64,000 nucleotides of DNA from Pseudomonadota bacterium. GTDB taxonomy: Bacteria > Pseudomonadota > Alphaproteobacteria > UBA2136 > JASBTF01. Of the stretch, positions 45,246-63,896 are shown piece after piece (position 1 is the stretch's first letter; each line of letters begins with the position of its first letter). The translations under genes and the position numbers were made by a program. The DNA lies in assembly GCA_030148545.1 (NCBI GenBank), contig JASBTF010000002.1:49218-113217 (forward strand), given 5' to 3'. Below the pieces are notes generated by a model. That model searched no databases, was not told where the DNA came from, and saw only the letters and a program-made list of their open reading frames with translations.

Positions 45246-45269
45246 AGCTGTTATCTCTATAACGAATGA

Positions 45270-46688: not shown

Positions 46689-46819
46689 GGTTTTTTTACC
46701 ACACCTGTTTTAGTCAATGACCACTTACTGTGCGTGGTCGGGTTGCTGTTGCCTCTAGGCTTGCCGTACAAATAGAGCGCAGTCAAGTTATTGATGACCA
46801 ATTGCGCGCAAAACGGATA

Positions 46820-48076
46820 ATGTTGATGATGACAAAACACAAAATTTTAAACGTAACCACCCTACTAAGCTCGGTGCTCATAGCGAGTGCTGCCCATGCG
46901 GCGCCAGTACCTGGTTACATTCCACCAGTAACGTACAGTACCGCACCGGCTTATGCCGATGATACACGCGGAGTGTTTGTGCCAAGCCACGAACAACATC
47001 GCCTGCGTACCAGCCGCGAACTGGAGCTGGCGGCAAACCCGCCACGTGGTAACGACACCCCACTATACGCACAGGAAAATCCAAATGTGGATGCGTATGA
47101 AAAGCAGTTGAACATGATTTCTAGCGGTGTGAATAACTATGCGAGCGAGATGGACCGTATTGCAACCAACCCAGGTATGTTGAACGGTGGTGAAGCAAGC
47201 GCAGATGCACACCTGTACGATAGCAGCCAGTTTCCTGCTACAATGCCGGCGCAAGCGCCACAGCAAGCCCCAATAATGGCTGTGCCTGTTCAGCAGGTAC
47301 CACAAGGTTTCCAAATTGCACAAATGCAACCACAACAGCCTTACATGCCTAGCCAAAACATGAACATGCCAGCCGCCGTACCGCTAATGGATGGGGGTGT
47401 TGAAATGGCTGTGGGTAAGGTAAATACACACCCGCTGGATATGCACAACAGCTTGGTACGCATTAAGGAAGATCGTATTAGCATTCGCCGCACCCTGCAG
47501 CGCATGATGGACCAAATTGGTGCTGGCGACTGGCAAATTGTGTGGGATTTAGCCGAGCATAATGCCGCGTTGCCTGATACTGAAATTGCTATTGAAACCG
47601 AAGAGCCATTTGTGAATGTGTTGAACGCAATGCTCGCACGCATGCAGACCCGTAGTGGTCAGCCGCTGCGGGTGATTCGTTACGACCGTACCAAGCGTTT
47701 GGTTATTACTGACCGCCAAGGTGGTCACCAACTGGCAGAGAGTGTATCGCCTGTAGGTGTGGAAAAAACCGCTAAGCTGGCTGTAACCGAAGATGTGCTG
47801 CGCGAAGCTATGGTGAGCTTGCACTACGATGAAGTGCCACTGGTAGACGCGTTGGAGAATATTATTAACCAAGCTGGTCGTGGTGAATGGCGCTTGCGTA
47901 TGTACGCTGGGTTAGACCAAGTGCTGCGCCCTGCGCACATTGAAGAGCCATTTAGTGTGGCGATGGACCGCCTGCTGCGCCTATTTAACTTGAAATACGA
48001 AGTATTCCCTGGCGGCAAGCTGGTGGTGGTAACACAAGATAACTCCTTTGGATTTAATAAGTTAGGCGCCCAATAA
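46820..48076 (+). CDS. Secreted protein with C-terminal tandem PilL/TcpQ/STN-like domains (secretin-associated, pilotin-like?)
   Basis: Signal peptide MLMMTKHKILNVTTLLSSVLIASAAHA. Two C-terminal copies of an ...VNVLNAMLARM...RLVITD / ...VDALENIINQAG...KLVVVTQD module. taATGa overlap with the secretin gene. Confidence 0.5.
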   Translation: MLMMTKHKILNVTTLLSSVLIASAAHAAPVPGYIPPVTYSTAPAYADDTRGVFVPSHEQHRLRTSRELELAANPPRGNDTPLYAQENPNVDAYEKQLNMISSGVNNYASEMDRIATNPGMLNGGEASADAHLYDSSQFPATMPAQAPQQAPIMAVPVQQVPQGFQIAQMQPQQPYMPSQNMNMPAAVPLMDGGVEMAVGKVNTHPLDMHNSLVRIKEDRISIRRTLQRMMDQIGAGDWQIVWDLAEHNAALPDTEIAIETEEPFVNVLNAMLARMQTRSGQPLRVIRYDRTKRLVITDRQGGHQLAESVSPVGVEKTAKLAVTEDVLREAMVSLHYDEVPLVDALENIINQAGRGEWRLRMYAGLDQVLRPAHIEEPFSVAMDRLLRLFNLKYEVFPGGKLVVVTQDNSFGFNKLGAQ

Positions 48077-49911
48077 TGAAGCGTATTGCTGCTCTTACCC
48101 TTAGCGTACTCCTTGCTGGCTGTACGGTAAGCCACGTACAAAAAAACAACCCGACCGATGCTTTTAAAGAGCACGACCGTGACCGTGCAGGACACAATGC
48201 GGTTGTTGGTGTAGGTGCACCGGTAAGTGTGCAAACAATGCGTGCTAATGCCACATTTAGCATGCGCGGTAGCCAAGACCTAGGCGCGGTGATGAAACGC
48301 CTCGCAGGGACGTACAACATGGGTGTGCGCTACGGTGATGGTGTGCGCATGAACCAGCTGAAAGACATTCTTATTTCTGAGCTCGATTTTAACGAGTCTC
48401 GTAGCTACATTGAAGATGTTTACGGTGTACAAATTATTCGTGAAGGTGAGCGTCGCTTGCTGGTATTGCCTTCGGCCAGTGCACCACGTGTAGGCAGTTT
48501 TGCCCCAGGCTTGAATGTAACTTTGGCGCAGGCTGTGCGCGGCCTATCGGACCTGTGTGGCTTTAACATGGTGATTACCGAGAACAAGCAAAAGCTGGCC
48601 ACCACTTTGGTTACGGCTAACTTGCAAGAAATCACCTGTCATGAAGCATTTGATGCGTTGTTGACGCCGCAAGGTTTATCGTTGGTGGATGAAGGTAGCT
48701 ACTATACCATTAGTGGTTTCCCTACCCGTAACTGGCGTATTAATTTGTACGAGCCAGAGCGTAGTGAAAGCCAACAGCTGACGTATCAATCTCAGTTTGG
48801 TGGTGAGAGCTCTGAAGGGTCTTCTAGTCAGTCTGTTGGTGGTAGTGCCAACATGAGCATTAGCGTAGAGCGTAACTTGTTTGATGACCTTGAAAAGGAT
48901 TTGACCGAACTGCTGGATAAATCTTGTGAAGAGGCGAAATCGGCCGCCAGCTCTGCTGGTGTGGCTGTGTTAAATCCAAATGCTGGTATTGCACCGTTGC
49001 CAAGCGTAGCAACACCTGATGCGGGTGGCGATACTGTTTGTGGCTATGTGCGTGTGAACAAATCGGTTGGTTTGGTGCAAATGCGTGCGCCTCACAAGGT
49101 GCTAGAGCATGCCGAGCAGCTCATTAAGCAAATTGAAGATATTGCTAGCCGCCGCCTGATGGTAGAGGCGCGTGTGCTGGCGGTAACGCGTGATAACAAC
49201 TTTAACAAATTTGGTAACCTCACAACCGATGATTTGGCCGGGATTTCTGGCAGCAATAACGCGGCACCTGGTGACCAGCTGACACTTGCTTTGTCTAATA
49301 GTGGTAGCGTAGCAAGCCAGCTTACTAACTTGCTGAACAGTGCAAACATTACCTTTAAAACAGGCTCGCTAGACGCTGTGGTTGGTATTGCTGAGCGTTT
49401 TGGTACGACCTATCAACTGATGAAGCCAACAATGGAAGTTATGGACCGCCAGCGCGCGACGTTGATTGACGGCTTTAACCAGATTTACTTTGAGGTAGAC
49501 ACCACCACCGACACCACAACAGGCGGTAGTGTAACTAACGAAGATGTAAACATTAAAACTCAGTTTGTAGGGTTGCAGTTTAGTGTTGTAGCCCAAGTGG
49601 CCGATGAAGGTGAGCCGCACACAGTGCAGCTACAGCTACCTATTACCGAAATCCTTGAGTTTGTCGATATTCCGGGTAGTGGTGGTAAGGCACCGGTGGT
49701 TTCCACACGTCTGATCGACCAAAAAGTACGTGTTCGTGATGGTGAGATTAAAGTTATTGGTGGTTTAACCAAAACCGTAGCGCGTGATACGCGCAGCGGT
49801 ACACCGTTGATTGGTAATATTCCTGCGGTGGGTGAGCTCGCTAAATCGGAAGATATTGATTACGAGCAGGTAGAGTTTGTAGTTTTGCTGCAGGTAAAAC
49901 GCTTGCAATAA
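48076..49911 (+). CDS. Secretin (lipoprotein-type, as in type IVb pilus BfpB/TcpC/PilN-R64 secretins)
   Basis: Lipobox LLAGCTV. The C-terminal secretin signature is ...VRVRDGEIKVIGGLTKTVARDTRSGTPLIGNIPAVGELAKSEDIDYEQVEFVVLLQVKRL. Confidence 0.8.
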   Translation: MKRIAALTLSVLLAGCTVSHVQKNNPTDAFKEHDRDRAGHNAVVGVGAPVSVQTMRANATFSMRGSQDLGAVMKRLAGTYNMGVRYGDGVRMNQLKDILISELDFNESRSYIEDVYGVQIIREGERRLLVLPSASAPRVGSFAPGLNVTLAQAVRGLSDLCGFNMVITENKQKLATTLVTANLQEITCHEAFDALLTPQGLSLVDEGSYYTISGFPTRNWRINLYEPERSESQQLTYQSQFGGESSEGSSSQSVGGSANMSISVERNLFDDLEKDLTELLDKSCEEAKSAASSAGVAVLNPNAGIAPLPSVATPDAGGDTVCGYVRVNKSVGLVQMRAPHKVLEHAEQLIKQIEDIASRRLMVEARVLAVTRDNNFNKFGNLTTDDLAGISGSNNAAPGDQLTLALSNSGSVASQLTNLLNSANITFKTGSLDAVVGIAERFGTTYQLMKPTMEVMDRQRATLIDGFNQIYFEVDTTTDTTTGGSVTNEDVNIKTQFVGLQFSVVAQVADEGEPHTVQLQLPITEILEFVDIPGSGGKAPVVSTRLIDQKVRVRDGEIKVIGGLTKTVARDTRSGTPLIGNIPAVGELAKSEDIDYEQVEFVVLLQVKRLQ

Positions 49912-49998
49912 CAAGAAAAAGTCAGGAAGATGTCAGACATGTTTTTGAAAAGTCACATAAACCACACGCAACCGCACCAATTGCGGAAGGGGGAATAT

Positions 49999-50685
49999 AT
50001 GCAAAAATTTAATACTCAGCACTGGCAACAGCTGCTGCAACAACGCAACCGTGCAGCACAGCACGCTGGTTATACCATTGACCAAACTGTGCTGATTGTT
50101 GCGATTATCGCGATTTTGATCACCATTATTGTAACCACCGTGGGTATTGACCTTATTAACCGTGCAAGCGGTACTAAAATGTCATCCCAGCTTAAGCAGG
50201 TGGAAGACTCTGTGAGTGTGTTCTTTGCGAACAACCTGTTTTGGCCTCACCAAGACCCAGCTATTGTTGATACAACCAACGCTGGCTACTTGGCTGCTGA
50301 TGATACAACAGCGCTAACCAACGCCTTTGCGGATGAGTTCCCAGGCTTTGAAGTTGTAGGTATTTTGCAGCACACCTTTGGTATTGGTGGCGGTAACATT
50401 GAAATTATCCACGTACAGGACATTCCTGCTGCGGGTACCGACCGCTACGTAGTATTGTTCCGCGATGTGCCATACGAGGAAGCAAACAATGCTGACCGTG
50501 CAATTGATGGCCGTACCGCTGCTGGTAACGAAGGTCGCCTACGTATTGGTGAAAATGATGGTGCTCTAGCTGATGTTGCAGACTGTAACGCCGGTACCGA
50601 CACCGCAGCCAACGACCGTGCAGCTGATGCAGATGATGATGGTCTGGTAGACGTGTGCTACCAAGCGAACATCACCGCCAACTAA
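49999..50685 (+). CDS. Putative type IVb-like major pilin, atypical. It has a 24-aa basic leader ending in Gly and a hydrophobic alpha1-N, but Asp4/Gln5 instead of Glu5.
   Basis: MQKFNTQHWQQLLQQRNRAAQHAG | YTIDQTVLIVAIIAILITIIVTTVGIDL. Strong SD (gaagggggaa). The C-terminal Cys pair (DCNAG...VCYQ) would suit a disulfide D-region. Confidence 0.45.
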   Translation: MQKFNTQHWQQLLQQRNRAAQHAGYTIDQTVLIVAIIAILITIIVTTVGIDLINRASGTKMSSQLKQVEDSVSVFFANNLFWPHQDPAIVDTTNAGYLAADDTTALTNAFADEFPGFEVVGILQHTFGIGGGNIEIIHVQDIPAAGTDRYVVLFRDVPYEEANNADRAIDGRTAAGNEGRLRIGENDGALADVADCNAGTDTAANDRAADADDDGLVDVCYQANITAN

Positions 50686-50713
50686 GCGGAGTAACCAACT
50701 AATCTAAAAACTC

Positions 50714-52612
50714 ATGGCCGATAATAATAACAAGACGCCAGCAGCAACGCCCTCCACTTCGGGGGGTGTTGGTGCCTTTGATGGGCAGGTTTCTGGCGCT
50801 TATGACGAGCAAGCTGTGAGTGATGGCCCAGTGCCCGATTTAAGTTTGGGCCAGCAAACAAGCGAGGGTGATGGTCTGCTGAGTCAGCAAACCAATGCGG
50901 CGGTGGAGAGCACCAGTAACTATCGCGATTTTTACCGTACTGTACTGGAAACATTATTAGCTTCTACAGACCTGGATTTGGACCAAATGGCCAAGGACCA
51001 GGTAAAAGCTGCGTTAGAGAGCAACAAACTCCCTCAGCTTGCAGCACGAGAGCTCATAAATCGCCGTTTAATTAACCGCGTGCAGTTGGCACGTGCGGTT
51101 GCGCGTACAAATGGCCGTAAAGAGATTCTATCCACCTTAGATTTGCCGCCAGAGGCAGATATGTTGCGCCGGGACCTGCCGGATAAGGTGAACCAGTTGC
51201 TACGTAACGAGCGGATGGTGCCTATTTACCTGAAAGAGCTAGGTGGTGGCCGTAAGGAGTTGCATGTAGCGCATGAAGGTGGTGCAAGCGACATGGTAGT
51301 GGAAAGTGCGCTGACCGACCTGCTGCCACAGCATGATTTTGTGTGGCACTTTATTCGTCGTGAAGTAGCTGGTGCGTTTTGGCTGGCTGGCGAAGACGAC
51401 AACATTGATGCCAATATGGAAGCTGAGGCGCTGCTGGATCGTATTATTGATAATGCGATTGATGCGCGTTCTAGTGATATTCACATTGATCCTTCCATTA
51501 AGGGTGAGCCGCGCGCCATTGTGAAATACCGGATTGATGGTTTTGTGCACCCGCGCGAGGCAATTACGCTGCAGCAGCTAGACCGCTTGCGGGTGCGTAT
51601 TGAAAACTTGGCGCGTATGCCTAAGGTAAACCTGAACCACCCTAACAAAGGGGCGTTTACCCGTGGTGGCTATGACTGGCGTGTACAAATTCAGCCACAT
51701 GCTGGCCGTTTGGGCCCTGTGCCGCGCGTGGTTATTCGTCGCCTGAACCCTGACGTGATGCCGATGGAAGCTTTGGGGTACCCACCAGACTTTATTGAAA
51801 AGATTAAATCAGCCGCTGCAGCACCAGATGGTGTGCTGCTGTGGACGGGTCCTACTGGTTCGGGTAAGACCGAGTCCATCCACTCTGCGGTGGTGAGTGT
51901 AAACCCAATGGCACGTGGGTTGAGTGTTCACACTATTGAAGACCCCCCTGAGAAGCGTGTGACGGGTTATGCGGTGCAAATGGAGATATCGGAGGAAGAT
52001 CCTGCACGATTTGGCCTTCCGTTGCTTAAATCGTCTCTCCGTGCGGACCCTGATGTGGTTGTTTTTGGTGAGGTGCGAGATGCCCCTATGGCCAAGTTGG
52101 TGTTTGAAGCTGCCAACACAGGTCACCTTGTGTTTACAACATTGCACACCAACAGCGCGTTGGATGCGGTGAAGCGTTTGGATGAATTGGGCACCGGCGG
52201 CTTTATGATTTCTTATGTGCGGGGTATTGCCTCCCAGCGATTAGTGCGACGTTTATGCACGCACTGCCGTGTGCCAATGGAAGAACCTGATGAATATACA
52301 CAATATGTTTTTGACAAATATAACGTATCGCTAGATGGTGCTAAGCTATTTAAGGCTAAGCCACAGGGTTGCCCAAGTTGTAATTTCCTTGGTTATTATG
52401 GCCGTATTGCAATGGCGGAATGGTTGCGCCCAACGAAGGAGTTGGTAGAGGTGTGTGCCAGTGGTAACTACGATGATTTGGAAGATGTAGCCCGCCGTGC
52501 TGGTTGGTTGCCTATGGGTCATATGGGGACGTTGCACGTTAAAAACGGTATTACCGACTGTGCCGAGCTTTCCACCAAAGTACTTGAGCTTGCCGGCGAG
52601 CTGCTGACGTAA
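50714..52612 (+). CDS. GspE/PilB/TcpT-family secretion/pilus assembly ATPase with a long N-terminal extension
   Basis: Walker A LLWTGPTGSGKTES, Asp box, Walker B DPDVVVFGEVRD, His box FTTLHTNSALDAV, tetracysteine CTHC...CPSC Zn motif. Confidence 0.85.
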   Translation: MADNNNKTPAATPSTSGGVGAFDGQVSGAYDEQAVSDGPVPDLSLGQQTSEGDGLLSQQTNAAVESTSNYRDFYRTVLETLLASTDLDLDQMAKDQVKAALESNKLPQLAARELINRRLINRVQLARAVARTNGRKEILSTLDLPPEADMLRRDLPDKVNQLLRNERMVPIYLKELGGGRKELHVAHEGGASDMVVESALTDLLPQHDFVWHFIRREVAGAFWLAGEDDNIDANMEAEALLDRIIDNAIDARSSDIHIDPSIKGEPRAIVKYRIDGFVHPREAITLQQLDRLRVRIENLARMPKVNLNHPNKGAFTRGGYDWRVQIQPHAGRLGPVPRVVIRRLNPDVMPMEALGYPPDFIEKIKSAAAAPDGVLLWTGPTGSGKTESIHSAVVSVNPMARGLSVHTIEDPPEKRVTGYAVQMEISEEDPARFGLPLLKSSLRADPDVVVFGEVRDAPMAKLVFEAANTGHLVFTTLHTNSALDAVKRLDELGTGGFMISYVRGIASQRLVRRLCTHCRVPMEEPDEYTQYVFDKYNVSLDGAKLFKAKPQGCPSCNFLGYYGRIAMAEWLRPTKELVEVCASGNYDDLEDVARRAGWLPMGHMGTLHVKNGITDCAELSTKVLELAGELLT

Positions 52613-52753
52613 AACTGCTCTTACGCTCTTACGGGTTAGAAATGTTGGCCTGTTTAGTGCGAAGTTATCAATAATCACACACTGCGCCCGCTCAATGTTT
52701 CGGTGCGGTTTGTTTTGCTGGAGATTTGTTGAGATAGGAGATAGGCTAAGTCT

Positions 52754-53836
52754 ATGCTTGATATTCAGGTCGGTATTACGAGTTTAGGAATTGAGGATCG
52801 GATTGCGTTTTTCCGGACTCTTTCTAGCTGGTTGCAGTCGGGCGGTGGTATGGCCGTGGCCGAGGCTGTGAAGAATACCTGCGACGGTTTTAGCCGTGAT
52901 GAGTATAAAACCCTGAAGAGCAAAATGGATATTATTGTACGTGCGGTACAAAGTGGCCAAACACCGTTTTATATGGCGCTGCGCGATGCAAATATTGGTT
53001 TTCAACGCCAAGAACTGGCAATTTTAGAGGCTTCGGAAAAAAGTAACCAGCTGAAAGAGGCTGTGCCATCGCTTGTTGAAGCGCTTGATACGCGCCATAA
53101 AAGCCGTAAAGCGCTGGTGGGTAAACTAACCATGCCGCTTATTGGTGGTTTTGCGTTGATTTTGATGTCGCTCGGGGTGTTGATTGTCATGATGCCTACC
53201 ATTATGGAGCCAACGCTAAAGCGTAACCCTGAGGCGCTATATGACTTTCCATCCATTATTCGTTTTTACTGGTATGCTTCTGTATGGTTGCGGGCTAATT
53301 GGTTGGTAACCACCATTTTTGGATTGTCTCCAGTTATTTTGATGATTATGCGTTTTGTGCCAGCATTTAAGCCTATTTTTCAACGTACGTTGGTACAGCT
53401 ACCGATAACTAAAAAGCTGATTATTAACTTTAATGCCATGGTGGTGGTGTATTTTATGCCAGCGCTGCTGCGCAGTGGTATGCCAACACACCAAGTGTTG
53501 GATACGTTGGCTGACTGTGTGGATAACATTAGTTTGGCCAATATTTTACGCACAGCTGCGCAAGAGCATGAAGGTGGGGTGCGTATGAGTGATGCGGTAC
53601 AGCTTTTGCCGTTTAGAACATCGTTTGTGAATGCCGTGCACTCGGGTGAGTTAACTGGGGCCATTGCCGACCGTGTGGCAGATTTAAAAGAGCCTTATAC
53701 CTTGGAGCTAACGCGCCAAATTGGTAAAATTACCAAAACGCTAATGACAATGGTGATGGCCGTATTGTTGCCGCTGTTTATGATTAGTACCTACACAACA
53801 TTGATGGCGCCGATTTTTGCGCTGATGAATTTTTAG
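52754..53836 (+). CDS. GspF/PilC/TcpE-family inner-membrane platform protein
   Basis: 360 aa. N-terminal cytoplasmic helical domain plus 3 TM regions. The size and topology match the T2SSF family. Sits immediately after the ATPase. Confidence 0.6.
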   Translation: MLDIQVGITSLGIEDRIAFFRTLSSWLQSGGGMAVAEAVKNTCDGFSRDEYKTLKSKMDIIVRAVQSGQTPFYMALRDANIGFQRQELAILEASEKSNQLKEAVPSLVEALDTRHKSRKALVGKLTMPLIGGFALILMSLGVLIVMMPTIMEPTLKRNPEALYDFPSIIRFYWYASVWLRANWLVTTIFGLSPVILMIMRFVPAFKPIFQRTLVQLPITKKLIINFNAMVVVYFMPALLRSGMPTHQVLDTLADCVDNISLANILRTAAQEHEGGVRMSDAVQLLPFRTSFVNAVHSGELTGAIADRVADLKEPYTLELTRQIGKITKTLMTMVMAVLLPLFMISTYTTLMAPIFALMNF

Positions 53837-53845
53837 GAGAGCGTA

Positions 53846-54958
53846 ATGAGATATGTAATGTTCTCTCCCCAAGGTAAGCACTACGAGAATGGCTCTAGTG
53901 GTGAGATGACCGGTATTTTTGTACCAAATGCTGACCAAATCCGCCGTTTAGAGAACTTGCCAGATCCAAACCGCCGCAGTGTTGCTGAGCGTTACGGCGC
54001 AGGAACACGTATTCCGTTGTGGAATAGCACGGTGGGTGGCACGTGGGTGTTTGGGACCATGGATGAAGCTTTGGCAGAGCGCCGGCATGGGCTGAGCGTT
54101 TACTTGCCGCAGCACTTTGTGCCGGAAAGCTGCGATGTTTTTTACTTTGTATTTGGCCGCGAATGGATTGTGCATGGCGTGCGCACGGTTTCGGACGAAG
54201 GGTTTGTAGACTGGCGTGTTTCCAAAATGCAAGCAACCGAACAAAGCGTTATGGACGAGTTGTTAGGTTCTATTAGTAGCCGCATGCTTACCGGCACGCA
54301 GGACCAAGCGCTGATTGCGGTGATGGGTGATGACAAGCTGCTGGCTGATGTAAAAGCAGTTGTAGAGCCGTTAAATTTGGATGTAACGCGTTTTTCAGCG
54401 CTATCGCCACAAAAGGCAACCAAACCACTATACAAACATGGTGATTTTGGGCTGATGATGCTCACAGTGGCGACGTTTGCTGCACTTACACTGGTTGCGG
54501 TGAGTATTCTGTTTTTGCTGAACACCAAGGAATATAATGATTTGAAGAATAATGTGCGTAAGGTTCAGGCGCAGATTAGTCGGGTGCAGCTTAATAAAAA
54601 TATTTCGGTAAAAGCACCGCGGGTGGTGCTGGCAGCTATTGAAAAGCCATATAACTTTAAAGTTTCAGATGTTGCGAGCGCCGTGGGTGAGGCCATAAGT
54701 GTGTTTGGTGAAGTTAGCAAGGTGAATGTGGGCCATGGTGCACAGGACCGTTTTGAGCGCCGCATTGGCCAGCAATATGTGGTGGATGCAACGGTAGAGC
54801 TAAAGAATGTTGATGCCGCCTTGTTGGTAGCCCAAGAAGAAGTGGCGCAGCAGATATTAAAAACACGCCCATGGATTAAGCGCATTGAGCGCATTGACGG
54901 TGGCTCGACAGGGCCAAACGCAACGATGACGCTCAAAGTAACGGTGCAGGTGCGATAA
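53846..54958 (+). CDS. Bitopic inner-membrane protein with the GspL/BfpC-like topology (cytoplasmic domain ~190 aa, one TM, periplasmic domain)
   Basis: Single TM FGLMMLTVATFAALTLVAVSILFLL in mid-sequence. Position in the operon. Confidence 0.4.
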   Translation: MRYVMFSPQGKHYENGSSGEMTGIFVPNADQIRRLENLPDPNRRSVAERYGAGTRIPLWNSTVGGTWVFGTMDEALAERRHGLSVYLPQHFVPESCDVFYFVFGREWIVHGVRTVSDEGFVDWRVSKMQATEQSVMDELLGSISSRMLTGTQDQALIAVMGDDKLLADVKAVVEPLNLDVTRFSALSPQKATKPLYKHGDFGLMMLTVATFAALTLVAVSILFLLNTKEYNDLKNNVRKVQAQISRVQLNKNISVKAPRVVLAAIEKPYNFKVSDVASAVGEAISVFGEVSKVNVGHGAQDRFERRIGQQYVVDATVELKNVDAALLVAQEEVAQQILKTRPWIKRIERIDGGSTGPNATMTLKVTVQVR

Positions 54959-55458: not shown

Positions 55459-55461
55459 GCT

Positions 55462-56082: not shown

Positions 56083-56122
56083 CATGCCCCATAAGTTAAC
56101 TAACGGGGGATAAAACACATAA

Positions 56123-57178
56123 ATGCAAGCGCTCATTTACATGACGCTGTTTGGGATATTACTGGCCACAACGGGTGGTCTTATTGGTGTTGCACTAGAC
56201 TCCTCCACACAATTGATTCAGCAACAAGTAAATGCCACTAAGCAGTACTTTGAGCAGGTTGAGTTTATTATGACTGAGCACGTGCTGGCAGACAGTATGG
56301 AATTGCCAACGTTGGTGCTCCCCGAAGATATATTTTTGTTAGATGAAGTACAAAATGGTGTGCTGTGGCAGGGGGAGAATACACAAACCGATTTGTGGCG
56401 TGAGTCGTTTGAAGTGCTAACCGCAACAGATTGGTTGCCCGTGGTGAGTACACCTGGAGGGTATGTTACTGCAACTGTGCAGGCTTTTGCGCTGGTTTCT
56501 AGCGGGCCAGATAAACAGTTTGATGCGGATACTCAAAGCGCGATGAATGCCGCTCAAGATACAATTAACGACTATACGGATGTTACAAACCTAGCCGCAG
56601 TTGCTGGCGGGGATGATATTGTTCATACGTTTAATACGGCAACCCCATCGCTACAGTTTTGGAACCAAATTGATGCAGCGGTAGAACGCTTGGCTTTTGG
56701 TTTGGAGAGTTATTACTCGCAAGAGTTAAAAAACTTTAACCGCGATTTGGTAGTTTGGTTACAAGACTATTACGATAACTTTGGCCACACCTATGTGTAT
56801 GATCCAATTACAGGCAGTTATTCGGTAAACGTAACTGATACCAGCTGGTTGGCACTTGTAGATACCAAGCCAACTATGGTGACGATGACGCTAAATTTAC
56901 GCCAAATTGCGCAAGATGTTGCCGATGGCTTGGCCGTAGATCCCACCACCACGTTATATGAGCTACCAGACCCGGTGGGGATGGCAGATGCATTGAATTT
57001 TTTGTTGGTAGAGTCGGGCTTGACGATGCTGTTTTGTAATGCCAGCGCAACGGTGGTAGGCTGCAATTCAACAGGGGTAAATAACGATATGATTCGTGTG
57101 GTTTACCAAAAAGACCCCAGCGCAAGTAGTTGGAATATTGACATGAATGTGTTGGTTAATGAGGAGATAGAGTTTTAA
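56123..57178 (+). CDS. Membrane-anchored protein with a hydrophobic N-terminus (possible non-canonical pilin-like or assembly protein)
   Basis: MQALIYMTLFGILLATTGGLIGVAL N-terminus. No G-F/M-T-L-x-E motif. Confidence 0.35.
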   Translation: MQALIYMTLFGILLATTGGLIGVALDSSTQLIQQQVNATKQYFEQVEFIMTEHVLADSMELPTLVLPEDIFLLDEVQNGVLWQGENTQTDLWRESFEVLTATDWLPVVSTPGGYVTATVQAFALVSSGPDKQFDADTQSAMNAAQDTINDYTDVTNLAAVAGGDDIVHTFNTATPSLQFWNQIDAAVERLAFGLESYYSQELKNFNRDLVVWLQDYYDNFGHTYVYDPITGSYSVNVTDTSWLALVDTKPTMVTMTLNLRQIAQDVADGLAVDPTTTLYELPDPVGMADALNFLLVESGLTMLFCNASATVVGCNSTGVNNDMIRVVYQKDPSASSWNIDMNVLVNEEIEF

Positions 57179-58362
57179 TGGTACAGCAGCGTAAACACGG
57201 TGGTTTCTCCTTGGTTGAAGTGGTGATGGTGCTGTCGGTGATGGCGATCCTCATGACCGTGGCCACACCATCTATTCTTGATTTTATTAACTTGCAGCGC
57301 GAGCGTGAGGAAGAAAACGTGCACCGCGAAATTCAAAAAGCGTTTGAGGCTTATGTGCGTGAGAATGGCTCGCTACCAGGTGCGGTATCGCTCACGGCGG
57401 AGCTGTCGCGGGTGAGTAATTTGTCCCAAGGGCAGCTAGATACCGACCAATGGGGCCGTCCTCGGGTTTATGTTATGCACACGGAGCAAGAAACATTTTT
57501 GGATGCTGATGTAGATATTAATTATGTAACGGTGTTTACCACCGGGCCAGACCGTATTGTAGACGCAGGTACTGTTGGCGTGGCGGTAGATGCCAACCAA
57601 GAGCCAGATGTGCTCACCGATGGTGACTGGTGGCATAATGGCGTTATTCCTGTAGATGAGTACCAAAACGTGGGTGCTGCAGGTGATGACCAGTTGACTA
57701 AGTTTACCGATTACCAAATTAAGATTGAGCAATACAACACCACGCTAGAGCGCATGCAGAACTTGGCCCGTGCGCTGGATATTTATGCGCAATCTCGGTT
57801 GATTGAGCAGCAGATTAATTACAACCAAAACCAGCCAACACCACCAGCTGCGCCATACTCAGTAGCAGCCGCTGCGGCGCTGGACCCTAAAAGCCCCTCT
57901 ATTTTGATGTTTTACCCACCATCGGACGCACCAGAAGCGGCAGACGCTTTTTATGCCAATGCCGATGGCCAGAACTATTACTCGCCAAATGTGCTGACAG
58001 ATATGGGCACCTACGGTTTTAGCGGTGGCCGGGTGGATAATGGCGCTGATGACCCAACACGCCGTACGGAAATGATTTTACTGATGCGCTTGCTTGGTTT
58101 GCCAGACAGTAACTGCTGTAGCGCGCTACACCGTGGCTCAGACGGTGAGGAGAAAGCTTTTTTCTACTTTAGCAACCCACGCCCACGTACAGGGGCTACG
58201 GCATGTGGTACGCGTCCTAGCTTGGCCGTATTGGACGATGGTGGTGGTAATGCCGTGGTAGATACGCTGGATTACCCCGTTTACGACGTAGATATTACCT
58301 TGCCGCCGCGCATTACCACCGACTTTATTGCTAATGGTAACAACGGCGCCACCTGTGGCTAG
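57178..58362 (+). CDS. Large (394 aa) type IV minor pilin / pilus-tip-like protein with a canonical class III signal
   Basis: MVQQRKHG | FSLVEVVMVLSVMAILMTVATPSI. This has the prepilin cleavage-site Gly, Phe+1, Glu+5 and a hydrophobic alpha1-N. Two C-terminal Cys pairs. Confidence 0.75.
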   Translation: MVQQRKHGGFSLVEVVMVLSVMAILMTVATPSILDFINLQREREEENVHREIQKAFEAYVRENGSLPGAVSLTAELSRVSNLSQGQLDTDQWGRPRVYVMHTEQETFLDADVDINYVTVFTTGPDRIVDAGTVGVAVDANQEPDVLTDGDWWHNGVIPVDEYQNVGAAGDDQLTKFTDYQIKIEQYNTTLERMQNLARALDIYAQSRLIEQQINYNQNQPTPPAAPYSVAAAAALDPKSPSILMFYPPSDAPEAADAFYANADGQNYYSPNVLTDMGTYGFSGGRVDNGADDPTRRTEMILLMRLLGLPDSNCCSALHRGSDGEEKAFFYFSNPRPRTGATACGTRPSLAVLDDGGGNAVVDTLDYPVYDVDITLPPRITTDFIANGNNGATCG

Positions 58363-58380
58363 CCTAAACGTCAGACAATT

Positions 58381-58842
58381 GTGAGTGAGCATTTACTTTT
58401 GTTGGTGGCAGAGGCATTGCCATGGTTTTTTCCGCTTTTAATGGTGGTTTTGGGGGGTGTTTTTGGCAGCTTTTTAAGCTGCATGACCTACCGTGTGCCA
58501 TGTGGGCTTAACCCCAGCCAGCCGCCCAGCTATTGCCCGCAGTGCAACACACCGCTAGGTGTGGTGGACCTGGTACCCGTGCTCAGCTGGGTGTTTTTGC
58601 GTGGCAAATGCCGCCACTGTGGGGCCAAGTTTGGGTATCGGTATCTGCTTATTGAGCTTGCAACCATTGCTGTGGCTTATGCCGTGTGGCTATTTGTTGG
58701 GCCGCATTGGCACCTGTTGCCAGCCTTTGCAGGCGCAGTGGCTGGGCTGTTTGTGCTACTTTGTGCAGTGGTGGAACGCCACCTGGCGCCTCGGGTGTTG
58801 CTCTTTTCCCTCATGATGTTGGGGGTTATTGCCCTTACCTAG
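58381..58842 (+). pseudogene. Prepilin peptidase-like protein truncated to the N-terminal Zn-finger/TM domain (153 aa). The A24 catalytic domain is absent and the first catalytic Asp position is replaced.
   Basis: GSFLSCMTYRVP...CPQC...CRHCG matches the PilD N-terminal tetracysteine domain. Where PilD has I-D-x-D-H-x-L-L-P-D, this protein has V-V-E-R-H-L-A-P-R, and it stops about 25 aa later. No GGGD[VI]KL motif is found in any frame downstream. Confidence 0.55.
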
Positions 58843-58889
58843 GTGCAACCCTTGTTTGGTTGTGGCGGCTGCCACACACTCTGATCGGG

Positions 58890-61800
58890 ATGATTTATGC
58901 CGTGACCCGCGTTAGTTTACTTGTGGCCAGTGTTGCCACGGTTTTTGCTTGCACCGCATTAACCCCAGTACAAGCGGCGGAAGAGGCACAGGTTGCCACT
59001 GGCACTATTGAAAAACCGCGCATTTACATGCGCCGCACCACCCCCCTGCCCCCCAAGCCAACCGAGGAAGAGTTGGAAGATAAGATCCGTCGCATTTTGG
59101 CAGAGTCACTGGTGCAACCAGCACCAAATGTGGAAGTAGCCCTACGTGAAATTGCCCGCCAAACTGTGGTAAGTGGTAATGAGGCTGAGGTTCAAGCTGC
59201 GATTCGCCGTGTGGCTGAGCAAACACTACGTGACAATGGCGATGAGCTACGCGCACTAGCACTACAAACACTGAGTGACAACGAGGGGTACATCTCCACC
59301 GTGGCACGCCGTACGGTAGAGCAATCGGACGATGTGATTGCTGGTGTGGCACAAGAGGTGGCTGCAGCTGAGTTTGCGGCGAATCGTCCGCTGATTGAAG
59401 ATGTGGCAACAGTGATTGCCAGCAGCCAAATTCAACGTGCACAACCACGTTTTGAGGAACTTGCCGAGCAAATTGCTGACCGGGTGGCACTGGCTCAACT
59501 AGATGCGGCACGGCCCGACTTTTTGGCTGAGAGCGAGCTGATTGCAACCCGTATTGCACAGAGTGAATTGAAGGCCACAGCCCCTGCCCTGTTGGCAGAA
59601 GGCGAGCAGCGTGCGCAGCGCATTGCCGACCGCACAGCAGCGCAACAATTGGCCGCCGCACGCCCAGAGTTTGCCGCCACAGCACGTGAAATTGCAATGG
59701 CAGAAATTATTGCCTCTGAGCCACGGGTACGGACACTGGCGAACGAAATTGCTTTCCGTGTGGCTGAGGACCGTATTACAGCAGCACAACCAGCCTTTGC
59801 TGAGGCTGCAACTGCTATTGCCGCAGCACAAGTGGCTGGCGCACAACCAAATTATGAGCAGTTGGCGGAGCGTATTGCTCAGCGTGTTGCTGCCGACCAA
59901 TTGATTGCTATTCGCCCTGAACTTAACAGCGATGCGCAGGAAATTGCAGTGGCCGAAATTGCTGCAGCGATGCCGCAAATTCGTGACCTGGCGCAAACCG
60001 AAATTGGCAATGCACGTGGGCTAATGGCGCAAGTAACGCGAGAGACCATTACCGGTGGCGAGGAAGGTGATATCCGCGCTGCAATGGCTGGTATTGCCCG
60101 CCAAACATTGGCCGATAGTGGCGATGCGTTGCGTGCTTACACGATTCAGGCGCTTGGTGAAAATGAAGAGTTTATTCAATTGGTTGCTCGCCGCACGGTG
60201 GAGCAATCGGATGACGTGATTGCTACGGTAGCAGGCCAAGTGGCAAGCGAGCAGCTGGCCGCAGCACAGCCAGAATTTTTAGCCGAAAGCGAGCAAATTG
60301 CTGCCCGTTTGGCACAAAGCGAAGTTGAAGCTGTTGAACGCCGTTTGCAAAAACGTGCTGAAAAAACAGCGGGTAAGGTTGCTAAGGCCAGTATTCGCCA
60401 AGCAGAACGTGAGTTTGAGATTTCAGCAGAAGAAATTGCCCAGCGTATTGCTCAGCGCCAGTTAAAAGCAGCTGAAAAAGGCTTGTTGAAAGAAAGTGAA
60501 CAAATTGCGCAGCGCGTAAGCCGTGAGCAGTTTAAGCAGGCTCAACCACGTATTGAGGCCACAGCAACCGAATTGGCTGAACGCATTGCTGCTCGCCAAA
60601 TTGAAGCAGCGGAAGAGCGCTTTGAGCTTTCAGCGCAGGATATTGCAACACGTGTAGCTGACCAACGTTTTACTGGTGGTAGCGAAGAAATTGCCGCCAT
60701 TGCTGGCCGTGTAGCTGATGAGCGTTTTGTGAACGGTGGCCAAGAAATTGAAGAGATTGCTGAGTTGGTTGCACAGCGTGTGAGCCAGCGTGAGCTCACC
60801 CAGGCGCAGCCACAATTAGCACGTTTAGCGCGTGATGAGGCAGAGGCTGTGTTGGCTGAAGCGGAGCAGGATATTCGTGCTCTTGCGCAGGCTGAGGTGG
60901 CTGGTGCGCGTAACATGATGGCTGAGGTTGCACGCCAAACTGTGGTGGACCCCAATGCGGCGGATATCCGCAGCGCCATGCGTGATGTAGCCGCACAAAC
61001 ATTGACCGAGAGTGGTGATGAACTGCGTGCTATGGCGTTACAGTCGCTCAGTGAAAATGAAGGTTTTATTCGTATGTTGGCGCGCCAAACGGTGACCGAC
61101 TCTGACGATGTGATTGCCCGTGTGGCTGAAGAAGTGGCAAGCGAGCGCTTGGCTGCTGCTAAGGCTGATTTTGCAACCACGGCTGAACAAATTGCGGTGG
61201 CACAGTTGGATGGACGTGAGCAGAGTTTCCGTGCCATTGCGCGTGAAGAAGCGCAGCTATTGGATAGCGAAGTACAAAGTGCGTTTGCTCAAGTGGCACG
61301 TAACACCGTGTTGAACCCAGATGAGGATGTGGCGGATTCCTTGCGCCGTGTAGCACGCCAAGTGGTAGTTGATGGGGATGAAACGGTTGTGGCCTCTATT
61401 GCTGATGTAGCACGCGAAACGTTAACCGATAGTAGCGATGCAGCGGTACAAGCTGCTGTACGCCGTGCTGCCGAACAAGCGCTACGCGCCAATGGGGATG
61501 AAATTCGTGCTATGGCATTGCAAAGCTTAGCGGATAGCGATGAGTTTATTCGCCTTGTTGCCCGCCAAGAAGTTGAAGACAGCAGTGCATTTATTGGTGA
61601 TGTAGCCCGCCAAGTGATTTTGGGTGAAGACGACAAAATTGAATTTGCGATTCAGCGTATTGCCAGTGCCACGGTGGATGAAAAGCTAAAGCAGCAAGGT
61701 TTAGTATCACCATTGGGTGACGTAATTGTGGATGACAGCGCTATTGCCGTAGCCACGCTAGATGGTGAGCCTGCCCGCTTTGCAGAACCAGCACCAATAG

Positions 61801-62108
61801 CCGGTGACTGGATTGATTTGCAGGATTACCAAGTGGTGATTCACGCTGATGATGTAACGCTAGAAGATATTGTGAGCGATGTGATGCACCAAGCGCAAAC
61901 GTTTGTAGGCCCGTGGGAGCTAGAGTGGGGCATTAGCCGCGCTAACCGCGATATTCTGCTAGAGAAATTTACACTTAATGCCGAAACCCGCTTTGACCAT
62001 TTTGTGAGTTATTTGTCTGAGTACATGATGTCGTTGCGTGGCATTAAGCTGGATTTCCAACTATACCAAAAAGACCGCCGATTGGTGATTACCGACAATG
62101 CAATTTAA
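58890..62108 (+). CDS. Giant secreted Ala/Glu/Gln/Arg-rich tandem-repeat protein (1072 aa) with a C-terminal PilL/TcpQ/STN-like domain
   Basis: Signal peptide MIYAVTRVSLLVASVATVFACTALTPVQA. About 23-aa AQPxFxxxAxxIAxRxAxxQL repeats interleave with four ~72-aa modules (...GDELRAMALQSLSENEGFIRMLARQTVTDSDDVIARVAEEVAS...). C-terminal ...DFQLYQKDRRLVITDN. Confidence 0.7.
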   Translation: MIYAVTRVSLLVASVATVFACTALTPVQAAEEAQVATGTIEKPRIYMRRTTPLPPKPTEEELEDKIRRILAESLVQPAPNVEVALREIARQTVVSGNEAEVQAAIRRVAEQTLRDNGDELRALALQTLSDNEGYISTVARRTVEQSDDVIAGVAQEVAAAEFAANRPLIEDVATVIASSQIQRAQPRFEELAEQIADRVALAQLDAARPDFLAESELIATRIAQSELKATAPALLAEGEQRAQRIADRTAAQQLAAARPEFAATAREIAMAEIIASEPRVRTLANEIAFRVAEDRITAAQPAFAEAATAIAAAQVAGAQPNYEQLAERIAQRVAADQLIAIRPELNSDAQEIAVAEIAAAMPQIRDLAQTEIGNARGLMAQVTRETITGGEEGDIRAAMAGIARQTLADSGDALRAYTIQALGENEEFIQLVARRTVEQSDDVIATVAGQVASEQLAAAQPEFLAESEQIAARLAQSEVEAVERRLQKRAEKTAGKVAKASIRQAEREFEISAEEIAQRIAQRQLKAAEKGLLKESEQIAQRVSREQFKQAQPRIEATATELAERIAARQIEAAEERFELSAQDIATRVADQRFTGGSEEIAAIAGRVADERFVNGGQEIEEIAELVAQRVSQRELTQAQPQLARLARDEAEAVLAEAEQDIRALAQAEVAGARNMMAEVARQTVVDPNAADIRSAMRDVAAQTLTESGDELRAMALQSLSENEGFIRMLARQTVTDSDDVIARVAEEVASERLAAAKADFATTAEQIAVAQLDGREQSFRAIAREEAQLLDSEVQSAFAQVARNTVLNPDEDVADSLRRVARQVVVDGDETVVASIADVARETLTDSSDAAVQAAVRRAAEQALRANGDEIRAMALQSLADSDEFIRLVARQEVEDSSAFIGDVARQVILGEDDKIEFAIQRIASATVDEKLKQQGLVSPLGDVIVDDSAIAVATLDGEPARFAEPAPIAGDWIDLQDYQVVIHADDVTLEDIVSDVMHQAQTFVGPWELEWGISRANRDILLEKFTLNAETRFDHFVSYLSEYMMSLRGIKLDFQLYQKDRRLVITDNAI

Positions 62109-63642
62109 GAAACTATACCTAACCTTATTGGTAACCACAGCGTTAACTGCTTGTGGCACAACAAGTACCGAACGTGAGCTGCTAAAGGCTGATCCGTTTG
62201 TGCCACCACAACAGGGTGATGGCGGTATTGAGGTGGCGCGCACCAACGTGGTGGGCCGTGCTGGTGTGCAGCAGGATGCTGACTGTGCAGCGGTGGCATT
62301 AGGTGTCAGCGTGGGTAGCTTGCAGGGTGAAGAACAGTATTTGTTTGATGCTTCTGGCGAGCCATGCCCGGTGCCAGGTACTTTGTTTGATGGCCGCACA
62401 GCAGTAGATAGCCGTGCCACAGCGGTAGATACAAACATTCGGTTTGTAGATACAATGGGCTACACTCCACCACGTACAGGTGTGGAAGGTGGTGCAGCGG
62501 TGCCGGTACTTGTAGTGCCGCCGAGCAAAAAATTAAATGCTCAATACCCGCCAGAAATGGCAGGTGATGATGGTGTAACAACGGTGATGTTGGCTTACCC
62601 GCAAGAGCAAGCACCGCAGCCTGTGCCACAGGCAGTGAGCCGTCCACCGGTAGATTTAGAAGCTAAAATTGCCCGCATGATGGAGCTGGAGCAGCGCCAA
62701 GCTGAAAAAGCGGCGCGCACACGTGTTTTAACCGAATCTGAGCGCTTATTGGCGGATATTCGTGATCTTGAGCGTATGAGTGAGACACAGCTCATTGAAG
62801 CGCATCAGGAACGCATTGAAGGATTAACAGCACAACTGCGTGAGCAGGAGCGTGCATTGGCGGTAAAAGAGCGCCACCAGGCAGATATTCAGGCGCGTAT
62901 TATACAAGCTGAACAACAGCAAGCGGCACAACACCAGTTTATGCGCCAAGAGCAAACACGTTTGGCGGAAGAGCGTGAACAACTGCAGCTACGCTTGGCA
63001 CAAATGAGTGCGGCAAACGAGCGTTTGGCAAACCGCCAACAACAGCGCGAAGAAGTGTTATTGCAGCAAATTAGCCAGTTAAGCGCTAATTTGGAGGCTG
63101 CTGAGATTGCTGCTGAGCAAGGCCGTCATGAATTGGTGGTGGAGGCAGCACAACGCATTGCCGAGGCTGAGCAACTGGCACAGGCGGCACGCACTGCCCA
63201 GCAACAAGCGCAGCAGCGCGAGGCATTACGCCTAAAAGTTGAGGGCGAAACCATGATGGAACGTGCGCTAGCCATGAATGAGGGTCGCCAAATTTTTGTA
63301 GAAGGCTTAAGCGACCAGTTGGCTATGGAAAGTAGCGAGACATTGGCACCGCTACCGCTAGACACAATACCGTTGTTTATTGAGGCGGTAGATACACCGC
63401 TGCGCGATATTTTTGAGCGTGTATTTAAACAGGCAGAAAACATGGCTGGTACGTGGCGTCATCGCTTTGAGTTAGATGCACAAAATGAAGAGATTTTAGA
63501 CGAACTGTGGACCGTAACGGCAGAAACAACGTTTGGCGAGTTTATGGCGTCTATTGCGGCACAGGTACAAGCAGAGCATCAGGTTCAGTTGCGTTACCGC
63601 CAGTTTGATACCGCGCGCTTGTTTGTGATCTCTGACAGGTAA
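62098..63642 (+). CDS. Outer-membrane-type lipoprotein with a long coiled coil and a C-terminal PilL/TcpQ/STN-like domain (PilL-like)
   Basis: Lipobox ALTACGT. The Gln/Glu/Arg-rich heptad region spans about 200 aa. C-terminal ...QVQLRYRQFDTARLFVISDR. 11-nt overlap with the upstream gene. Confidence 0.6.
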   Translation: MQFKKLYLTLLVTTALTACGTTSTERELLKADPFVPPQQGDGGIEVARTNVVGRAGVQQDADCAAVALGVSVGSLQGEEQYLFDASGEPCPVPGTLFDGRTAVDSRATAVDTNIRFVDTMGYTPPRTGVEGGAAVPVLVVPPSKKLNAQYPPEMAGDDGVTTVMLAYPQEQAPQPVPQAVSRPPVDLEAKIARMMELEQRQAEKAARTRVLTESERLLADIRDLERMSETQLIEAHQERIEGLTAQLREQERALAVKERHQADIQARIIQAEQQQAAQHQFMRQEQTRLAEEREQLQLRLAQMSAANERLANRQQQREEVLLQQISQLSANLEAAEIAAEQGRHELVVEAAQRIAEAEQLAQAARTAQQQAQQREALRLKVEGETMMERALAMNEGRQIFVEGLSDQLAMESSETLAPLPLDTIPLFIEAVDTPLRDIFERVFKQAENMAGTWRHRFELDAQNEEILDELWTVTAETTFGEFMASIAAQVQAEHQVQLRYRQFDTARLFVISDR

Positions 63643-63661
63643 TTAATGATGTTGCCCTACG

Positions 63662-63690
63662 AGCAAGCACCGGCTTTGCCGGTGCTTGCT
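63662..63690 (+). terminator. Strong 12-bp-stem hairpin ending the operon
   Basis: agcaagcaccgg-ctttg-ccggtgcttgct. The T-tract is weak. Confidence 0.5.
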
Positions 63691-63896
63691 ATACATAAAG
63701 TTGCCGTATAGGCACGGTTTATACCCCGAAAGTAAAAAAAATATGCCTAAACACTTGAAATGATGTTGGCGCTGTTCCATATGTGTGTACAAAGAGGGCC
63801 TGTGGGTACTCTAAATAGCGGTGGTGCAGGGTGTGTTGCCGCAGGGACTTGGGAAGGTTACCATAAGAGGTAACGGAACAATTTGGAGAGATGATA

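Follow-up and report, generated by a model that had tools for sequence, protein, structure and literature searches.

The thin pili of R64 and PAPI-1 (PilI-PilV in R64; PilL2-PilV2 in PAPI-1/pKLC102), which are of type IVb and serve their respective conjugation systems, are among the closest described counterparts of the locus reported here. They are encoded by a single operon within or beside type IV secretion system (T4SS) genes, I-type in R64 and G-type in PAPI-1, in which a lipoprotein secretin stands next to a TcpQ/PilL-like protein; the operon includes the adhesin PilV, and there is no retraction ATPase. PilU of R64 consists of a protease domain only. One operon with a TcpC/BfpB-type lipoprotein secretin and a TcpQ-like companion also encodes the toxin-coregulated pilus (TCP) of Vibrio cholerae and the bundle-forming pilus (BFP) of enteropathogenic Escherichia coli (EPEC), both classical type IVb pili; BfpC of the latter has an actin-like fold. 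In the present work, we analyzed a stretch of 64,000 nucleotides (hereafter the window; contig JASBTF010000002.1, positions 49,218 to 113,217, assembly GCA_030148545.1 of a Pseudomonadota bacterium) and in particular a block of 13 genes in it, which is a real, intact operon for a very divergent envelope machine resembling type IV pili (T4P) and type II secretion systems (T2SS). With the R64 and PAPI-1 loci it shares the single operon beside T4SS genes, the lipoprotein secretin next to a TcpQ/PilL-like protein, the lack of a retraction ATPase and a large pilin (O10) comparable in size and position to PilV. The 13 open reading frames (ORFs), numbered O1 to O13, are the following (TM, transmembrane; aa, amino acids).

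46820-48076, plus strand: O1, secreted protein with two TcpQ/PilL-like domains (weak Pfam TcpQ match, 0.023)
48076-49911, plus strand: O2, lipoprotein secretin (Pfam Secretin, 77.9 bits, 8.6e-22)
49930-50685, plus strand: O3, small pilin with the non-canonical site G/YTIDQT (alignment; hhalign to O10)
50714-52612, plus strand: O4, PilB/GspE-type assembly ATPase with a tetracysteine zinc motif (Pfam T2SSE, 232.7 bits, cutoff 24.9)
52754-53836, plus strand: O5, GspF/PilC platform (Pfam T2SSF, 77.7 bits, two stretches)
53846-54958, plus strand: O6, bitopic protein of GspL or PilM-PilN type architecture (structure model, fold matches)
54958-55458, plus strand: O7, bitopic protein with TM helix, coiled coil and a predicted twofold alpha-beta-beta domain (PilO/GspM-like topology, weak evidence)
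55462-56082, plus strand: O8, Sec-exported periplasmic protein (signal peptides in the 19 orthologues shown, lipobox in none)
56123-57178, plus strand: O9, pilin-like paralogue of O10 (hhalign, 97.7%, E 1.6e-12 over 180 columns)
57178-58362, plus strand: O10, canonical prepilin of 394 aa with the site G/FSLVE and a large Cys-containing C-terminal domain (N_methyl)
58381-58842, plus strand: O11, stand-alone N-terminal zinc-finger membrane module of a prepilin peptidase (A24_N_bact, 92.6 bits)
58890-62108, plus strand: O12, repeat-rich coiled-coil protein, probable lipoprotein (lipobox in 15 of 20 orthologues)
62098-63642, plus strand: O13, lipoprotein with a coiled coil, ending in a TcpQ-like domain (17 of 20 orthologues carry a lipobox)

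These consecutive plus-strand ORFs occupy positions 46820-63642, and all of them are intact and tightly packed. A same-strand operon of 13 genes with overlapping junctions had been proposed by the initial annotation, a first reading of the sequence alone, and both the ORFs and the overlaps were verified: the TAATG junctions at 48076, 54958 and 57178 are one-base stop/start overlaps, O12 and O13 overlap by 11 nucleotides (62098-62108), and the remaining intergenic gaps measure 3-47 nucleotides, with a single larger one of 141 nucleotides. By a simple scan of the window, no strong terminator was found inside the block, and a strong bidirectional terminator was located upstream of and outside the operon (45269-45294). 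The probable start of O1 is ATG 46820, at the beginning of the signal peptide, rather than 46689 or 46730. For O12, ATG 58890 is the probable start, and the gene therefore does not overlap with O11.

The secretin, ATPase and platform ORFs all match the families expected for them above the Pfam gathering cutoffs. O2 starts with an LAGC lipobox, and a lipobox is present in 24 of 25 orthologues, which together with the Secretin match bears out its designation as a lipoprotein secretin; the Pfam scan reported no Secretin_N domain (N1-N3) in O2, and a weak Secretin_N_2 match occurred in one relative. The T2SSE match of O4 and its four zinc-motif cysteines (Cys515, Cys518, Cys553 and Cys556), invariant among 30 homologues, agree with the predicted GspE/PilB-type zinc-finger ATPase, and the T2SSF match of O5 with a GspF/PilC platform. 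The N-terminal 240 residues of O4 (50714-51430) are of low complexity, and the segment that follows resembles T2SSE_N by eye, without a Pfam match; O4 homologues range from about 560 to 1007 aa, the variation lying at the N-terminus.

All NCBIfam equivalog scores for type IVa pili (T4aP), type IVb pili (T4bP), T2SS and the mannose-sensitive hemagglutinin (MSHA) pilus were far below the respective cutoffs. For O2, MshL reached 116.7 bits (cutoff 250.2, with the whole model covered), GspD 78.4 (351), PilQ 53.4 (284) and the type IVb secretin PilN 24.7 (287.65); for O4, PilB reached 222.6 bits (675.65) and GspE 217.4 (630.25); for O5, the best match was GspF with 67.1 bits (424). The operon is thus no near-identical copy of a characterized pilus operon. 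Among solved structures in the Protein Data Bank (PDB), O2 was closest to GspD (48 bits), followed by PilQ (32) and RcpA (30), and O4 to PilF (188) and PilB (179), followed by GspE (156) and BfpD (107). Among plasmid proteins, GspE/PulE-type ATPases were the best matches of O4 (162-197 bits), while unnamed T2SS/T4P/T4SS-family ATPases of enterobacterial plasmids of 56-120 kb, which we take to be IncI PilQ, reached 117-120 bits; O2 gave three weak matches only. The initial annotation had seen hallmarks of type IVb pili in this locus, and for the core this assignment is not supported: the ranking of the scores, by which the grouping of the ATPase was judged, favors PilB/GspE over BfpD for the ATPase and GspD/MshL over PilN for the secretin. 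What remains of type IVb character is the single operon, the lipoprotein secretin beside TcpQ/PilL-like domains, the first residue other than Phe in the O3 pilin and the lack of a retraction ATPase. The locus holds a single ATPase gene, and a PilT retraction ATPase is not encoded in it. The PilB/GspE-type ATPase, the PilC/GspF platform and a pilin with a class III signal peptide (O10), which mark the type IV filament superfamily, are all present. Judged from the sequence comparisons, the machine appears to be a deeply separated clade of its own within this superfamily; ATPases are 55-76% identical within the clade, as against at most 32% for outgroup ATPases and about 35% for plasmid ATPases.

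Among the pilins, O10 had been claimed as a canonical GFSLVE prepilin of 394 aa, and scores above the cutoffs for Pfam N_methyl (26.7 bits, cutoff 21.2) and TIGR02532 (23.1 bits, cutoff 16.3) confirm this; the protein is a candidate tip pilin or putative adhesin. In the related loci L016-L019, L021 and L027, about 1.1 kb extra lies between the orthologues of O10 and O11; this stretch, through which the ORF that covers the O10 match in L018 runs on (684 aa), may be either a further gene or a prolonged pilin gene. O3 is related to the N-terminus of O10 (hhalign, 94%, E 8e-8), and both proteins match GspG weakly in NCBIfam (19 bits for O3 and 25.5 bits for O10). The conserved site of O3 contains Asp4/Gln5 in place of the near-universal Glu5, and Tyr at position 1. 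Orthologues have leaders of about 9-25 aa and about 150-200 mature residues, and many of them, including the window copy, carry two Cys in the C-terminal part. Of the earlier description of O3 as a long-leader pilin, the pilin is borne out, and a leader of 46 aa requires the first ATG; the ATG at 49999, after GGAAGGGGG, would give 23 aa. In one subclade (L001, L010, L012, L015, L029 and L065), O3 is absent from its place between secretin and ATPase, and the large O10 homologue is the sole canonical prepilin in the locus. Because O3 is missing there, the assignment of the shaft pilin is uncertain. O9 begins at the hydrophobic helix, without a leader or cleavage motif in the alignment, and a profile search with it against the PDB returned nothing credible.

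O11 had been interpreted as a prepilin-peptidase remnant. Decay is contradicted by its conservation, as short orthologues of 108-183 aa consisting of the N-terminal domain only are kept in all 22 related loci aligned, with five invariant Cys. The aspartyl-protease domain Peptidase_A24 is absent from O11 and these 22 orthologues and is not encoded elsewhere in the locus. Prepilins would be cleaved by a peptidase encoded elsewhere, and O11 may then act as an N-terminal methyltransferase-associated module or scaffold only.

For O6, the AlphaFold2 model (pLDDT 84) shows a cytoplasmic domain with an actin-like fold, followed by a TM helix, a long helix and a periplasmic domain with a ferredoxin-like fold; the homologue search was run with a 27-sequence alignment, and the profile search against the PDB gave nothing credible. 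The single-sequence model of O7 is of low confidence (pLDDT 56), its PilO/PilN fold matches being a hint, and an hhalign comparison of O7 with O6 was not significant. Zero Pfam matches to T2SSL/M or PilM/N/O/P were found among 93 orthologues of O6-O9. Of the proposed GspL-like/GspM-like pair, the GspL-type architecture of O6 is thus retained from its model, and sequence support for the pair is absent from these orthologues. O8 was rightly regarded as periplasmic in view of its conserved signal peptides without lipobox; neither the window protein nor its orthologues belong to a Pfam family. Most of the accessory proteins are sequence orphans.

The presence of extra PilL/TcpQ-like proteins was substantiated by domains in O1, O13 and, judged by eye from the sequences, O12, whose C-terminal domain resembles those of the other two. 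The window copy of O1 itself is below the Pfam cutoff for TcpQ (15.2 bits, cutoff 27), and the family matches 10 orthologues (best E 1.9e-5). Mean column identity of O1 is 51%, its profile search against the PDB yielded nothing credible, and it is probably a partner of the secretin. The domains of O13 and O1 were aligned by hhalign with 94.5%, and zero plasmid homologues of the TcpQ-like region were found. The giant repeat protein that had been described corresponds to O12, in which 3-4 imperfect repeats of 882-894 nucleotides were verified. Its relatives are highly variable in length (191-914 aa), in contrast to the conserved C-terminal TcpQ-like domain of O13, and this variation suggests a length-variable spacer or surface protein. 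Taken together, the 13 genes supply every part of a type IV filament that depends on a secretin, except the protease.

To the O4 ATPase, more than 100 homologues with 58-70% identity were found, all of them in metagenomes or metagenome-assembled genomes (MAGs). A scan of one genome per species, with the window's own genome outside the representatives, yielded 31 loci, all from MAGs, which are mostly labeled Alphaproteobacteria or Proteobacteria and in some cases Magnetococcales; a metagenome scan with the upstream T4SS coupling protein (T4CP) as query yielded 21 more. About 50 MAG or metagenome loci share the colinear arrangement of the operon: O1-O13 stand in the same order wherever a locus is long enough, all ORFs are intact and colinear in the 31 genome loci and L065, and in the metagenome loci the colinearity covers the upstream block through O1-O3. 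Accessory proteins are 22-40% identical among loci, and between the window and its nearest relatives the most conserved proteins share about 70-79% identity. A radical-SAM gene (27495-28670) and neighboring housekeeping genes are syntenic in the longer loci of relatives, there is no tRNA at the locus borders, and the GC content is about 49% throughout the region with no clear break at the borders. Because gene order and housekeeping neighbors are kept, with no border tRNA and an even GC content, the locus is fixed at one chromosomal position; its colinearity together with the flanking housekeeping genes shows vertical inheritance rather than a recent island. An origin from a plasmid or an integrated conjugative element (ICE) was rejected, as plasmid homologues are essentially lacking for the secretin and the TcpQ-like region and a Cupriavidus plasmid of the MPF_F type (F-type mating-pair formation) with a related T4CP has no pilus operon.

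The machine is confined to bacteria known from MAGs only and labeled Alphaproteobacteria, one of which, UBA6189 (L025), was assigned by Schön et al. to Candidatus (Ca.) Mitibacteraceae, the deepest, basal family of the Rickettsiales. The GC content of the window (about 49%) compares with an average of 40-52% in basal Rickettsiales. Micavibrionales were dropped as the lineage of this clade, since a T4SS is not reported in the paper on the Micavibrio genome, and UBA6189 falls into Ca. Mitibacteraceae.

In the loci that reach far enough, the operon always lies between a split TraD-like T4CP with a thioredoxin upstream and TraA/VirB2-like pilins downstream. The genes concerned and their neighbors in the window are the following.

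35809-36735, plus strand: thioredoxin-like periplasmic protein, TraF/TrbB-like (syntenic in 14 loci)
36774-37088, plus strand: 104-aa protein with two TM helices and a conserved NR[VM]P.E[FY]Y.G tail (immediately precedes the T4CP gene in 25 loci)
37380-38795, plus strand: TraD/VirD4-like T4CP ATPase without TM helix (Pfam T4SS-DNA_transf, 43.6 bits; TraG-D_C, 39.8 bits)
39481-39762, plus strand: membrane protein of 93 aa whose conserved C-terminus reads RDFF[TI]S (syntenic in 24 loci; no family match)
39883-40863, plus strand: lipoprotein with Q/P-rich linker, coiled coil and conserved C-terminal domain (invariant Cys24; syntenic in 27 loci)
42521-43054, plus strand: highly conserved cytoplasmic protein (55-79% identity in relatives)
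43083-43403, plus strand: 106-aa protein with a single TM helix and a conserved AC.P...GGCYYFF motif (syntenic in 25 loci)
45306-46688, minus strand: protein of 460 aa with a pair of TM helices at the N-terminus, its cytoplasmic domain conserved (divergent from O1; syntenic in about 28 loci)
63891-64000, plus strand, running past the window end: start of a TraA/TrbC/VirB2-like T4SS pilin gene (position and signal-peptide form as in relatives)

The region at 33-46 kb had been annotated as orphan secreted-protein genes. Orphans do adjoin the operon, but the region also includes conserved partners, among them the thioredoxin and the split T4CP. Orthologues of the thioredoxin-like protein match Thioredoxin_2 (11 members, best 2.2e-9) and TraF (6 members, best 1.1e-7) and share the motif YYFSAxCP[YF]C; in the window copy, which reads YYFSIQGPYDQE (GPYD), the CxxC is gone, as it is in L047. 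Since both active-site Cys are lost, the window copy is probably redox-inactive. The T4CP is above the cutoffs of both Pfam T4CP families and reaches 25.6 bits with TrwB_AAD_bind and 93.1 bits with SXT_TraD of NCBIfam (cutoff 366). It is 51-79% identical over the full length among relatives and 33% identical to T4CPs of large plasmids, one of which was inspected and is MPF_F. The 104-aa protein is probably the detached membrane anchor of this coupling protein. In the window, a non-coding gap of 290 nucleotides (37089-37379) separates the two genes, which abut or overlap in relatives (716/722 in L029; 9998/9998 in L037). The lipoprotein at 39883-40863 and the cytoplasmic protein at 42521-43054 have no PDB or Pfam relative, and the protein at 45306-46688, 27-47% identical among relatives, has no family or PDB relative.

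Downstream of the operon, L065 extends furthest into these genes. O13 is followed there by a pilin of the TrbC/VirB2 type (28.3 bits, cutoff 27.9), another pilin-like gene and matches to TraL (22.1 bits, cutoff 24.4; E 1.9e-4), TraE (18.6 bits, cutoff 24.8; E 1.3e-3) and TraK_C (13.6 bits, cutoff 28.5; E 0.076). The sixth gene has no family match and was read by eye as lytic-transglycosylase-like. Weak NCBIfam matches to TraA, TraL, TraE and TraK_Ftype agree with the pilin and Tra matches, and the order pilin-TraL-TraE-TraK is that of the F plasmid. Seven other loci likewise have a pilin-like gene after O13, three of the seven also TraL and one TraE.

The conserved upstream block is interrupted by window-specific insertions at 40925-42516 (three minus-strand ORFs) and 43498-45245 (a 378-aa Cys-rich protein with two TM helices and a 186-aa TM protein, followed by the terminator at 45269-45294), whose genes have no homologue in the related loci compared. 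A secreted Cys-rich orphan of 532 aa is encoded at 33711-35309; it belongs to no Pfam family and lacks homologues in all related loci; an ORF of equal length in L037 shows no similarity to it and is a coincidence. The housekeeping part of the window includes a histidine kinase gene (1965-3362) whose N-terminal sensor domain is of PilJ type (Pfam PilJ, 3.8e-12).

With moderate confidence, we propose that the 13 genes encode a complete and functional filament machine, a lineage-specific contact filament which would work with the adjoining T4SS. O4, on a platform of O5, O6 and O7, would polymerize and extend a shaft of O3, with O7 and O8 as partners of O6. O9 and O10 would be minor or tip subunits, O10 as tip or adhesin, and the fibre would pass through the O2 secretin, escorted or anchored by O1, O12 and O13. 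By analogy with the R64 and PAPI-1 thin pili, the filament would be a cell-contact or attachment organelle for the F-type T4SS, and the whole apparatus may have undergone domestication in the chromosome, where it could serve to deliver DNA or effectors to other cells.

Several points weigh against this proposal. It is the conserved adjacency only that suggests a functional link between pilus and T4SS. An F-type T4SS makes its own pilus, and a second filament is not obviously needed. TraL, TraE and TraK of L065 are each under their curated cutoffs, and VirB4/TraC, TraB and a relaxase were not seen in DNA reaching 3.4 kb past O13. The locus contains neither a retraction ATPase nor an A24 peptidase domain, O3 is possibly not the shaft pilin given its absence in one subclade, and ATPase, platform and secretin are closer to T2SS, T4aP and MSHA than to conjugative type IVb proteins. 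Going further, the T4P-like machine and the F-type T4SS with its split T4CP could be fused into one chromosomally fixed, vertically inherited hybrid delivery apparatus, in which the filament would make contact or form part of the conduit and the coupling ATPase would feed substrates in. We regard this as tentative and on the whole doubtful; if true, it would be an undescribed cell-to-cell delivery system, possibly an ancestral tool for cell-to-cell interaction in the lineage from which obligate intracellular Rickettsiales later arose.

An alternative that we consider unlikely is a T2SS-like exporter, in which O4 drives a short pseudopilus of O3, O9 and O10 that expels folded proteins from the periplasm through the secretin, and the T4SS neighbors are irrelevant; its substrates could be the neighboring orphan secreted proteins. 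The relatedness of the core fits this view, with GspD as the best PDB match of the secretin (and second to MshL in NCBIfam), GspF as the top NCBIfam match of the platform and GspE/PulE as the best plasmid matches of the ATPase, and so do the GspL-type architecture of O6, the weak GspG matches of O3 and O10 and the lack of a retraction ATPase in the locus. However, GspC was not found by Pfam in the window proteins and the 93 orthologues, none of which matched T2SSL or T2SSM either; there are three pilin-like proteins instead of five pseudopilins, and all Gsp equivalog scores are far too low. The lipoprotein secretin with its TcpQ-like neighbors and without reported Secretin_N domains, the size of O10 with its large C-terminal domain, which is unlike pseudopilins, and the invariant position within T4SS genes likewise speak against an exporter.

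It is improbable to a similar degree that the filament is an ordinary adhesion, biofilm or motility pilus, functionally uncoupled from the adjoining T4SS genes. In the literature on basal Rickettsiales, T4P is listed as present and tied to attachment or biofilm, and no physical link to the T4SS is visible in the sequences. Yet the order of T4CP block, pilus operon and tra-like genes persists despite accessory proteins that are 22-40% identical, a divergence over which chance neighbors would be expected to separate, and the locus lacks the PilT needed for twitching.

A pilus for the uptake or export of DNA, with the FtsK-like coupling ATPase moving the DNA, is very unlikely. In many bacteria, competence is conferred by secretin-dependent type IV pili, and T4CPs are DNA translocases, with the TrwB_AAD_bind match in line with this; however, no gene similar to ComEA/ComEC or to a relaxase was seen in the DNA examined, and in NCBIfam ComGA and ComGB scored below PilB for O4 and below GspF for O5, respectively. 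That the locus is a decaying remnant of an ICE with a thin-pilus operon is scarcely credible, for despite conjugation-type genes on both flanks, an O11 truncated relative to PilD, a window thioredoxin without CxxC and lineage-specific insertions in the window, all 13 ORFs are intact, as are their orthologues in complete loci, O11 is conserved in its short form with five invariant Cys, the position beside the same housekeeping genes is fixed without border tRNA or clear GC break, and neither ATPase nor secretin has a close plasmid relative.

The locus gives the type IV filament superfamily a further, deeply separated branch, in which a PilB/GspE-like core is combined with an outer-membrane module like that of type IVb systems. 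Its pilin without Glu5, its leaderless pilin paralogue and its stand-alone PilD N-domain bear on the processing and assembly of pilins. Moreover, it is a concrete, testable candidate for contact machinery preceding host association in the Rickettsiales, because UBA6189 is assigned to their basal family and the papers on this group, those of Schön et al. and Castelli et al. (PMC9352585, PMC10847448), give 'T4P' and 'CONJ' merely as present or absent.

Compared with known filaments, the gene set fits neither the canonical T4bP nor the canonical T2SS, as had been noted at the outset: no equivalog cutoff is reached and the accessory set is orphan. The R64-type systems differ in their ATPase, since O4 scores 117-120 bits against the plasmid ATPases presumed to be IncI PilQ and 162-197 bits against those of GspE type. 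They also differ in the secretin, for which PilN stays at 24.7 bits (cutoff 287.65), and plasmid homologues are nil for the TcpQ-like domains and almost nil for the secretin; PilU, with its protease domain only, stands opposite O11, with its N-domain only. Further, the partner T4SS looks F-type (MPF_F), and the locus is chromosomal and inherited vertically. TCP and BFP resemble O3 in the non-Phe first residue and in a leader longer than those of type IVa pilins, and the actin-like fold of BfpC recalls the bitopic O6. In contrast to these pili, O4 is closer to PilF (188 bits) than to BfpD (107 bits), O3 lacks Glu5, three proteins instead of one carry a TcpQ domain, and a complete peptidase such as TcpJ/BfpP is not present in the locus. 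T2SS have in common with it the zinc-finger GspE-like ATPase, the GspF-like platform, a secretin core nearest to GspD in the PDB and the GspL architecture of O6, but the equivalog scores are about a fifth to a third of the cutoffs, and GspC, the set of five pseudopilins and any T2SSL/T2SSM signal are missing. The MSHA pilus provides the best NCBIfam match of the secretin (MshL, 116.7 bits, below 250.2); gene order and content are unlike mshH-Q, and no MshM/MshN-type genes were found. Nor does the type IVa set apply, as PilM/N/O/P have no Pfam matches, PilB and PilQ are below their cutoffs and the locus has a single ATPase gene.

The flanks, finally, resemble F-type T4SS, represented by the tra genes of the F plasmid and the Rickettsiales amplified genetic element (RAGE), in the TraD-like T4CP, the TraF/TrbB-like thioredoxin and the order pilin-TraL-TraE-TraK. 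Unlike in these systems, the T4CP is split from its probable membrane anchor, two pilin genes stand in tandem, the scores are weak, and the 17-kb pilus operon with about six orphan genes lies between the T4CP gene and traA. To our knowledge, such a permanent embedding of a pilus operon in an F-type T4SS locus has not been described for MPF_F systems. The machine is an unusual member of a known superfamily, and its interest lies in the fixed union with a T4SS, in several non-canonical parts and in a clade one of whose MAGs is assigned to the basal Rickettsiales.

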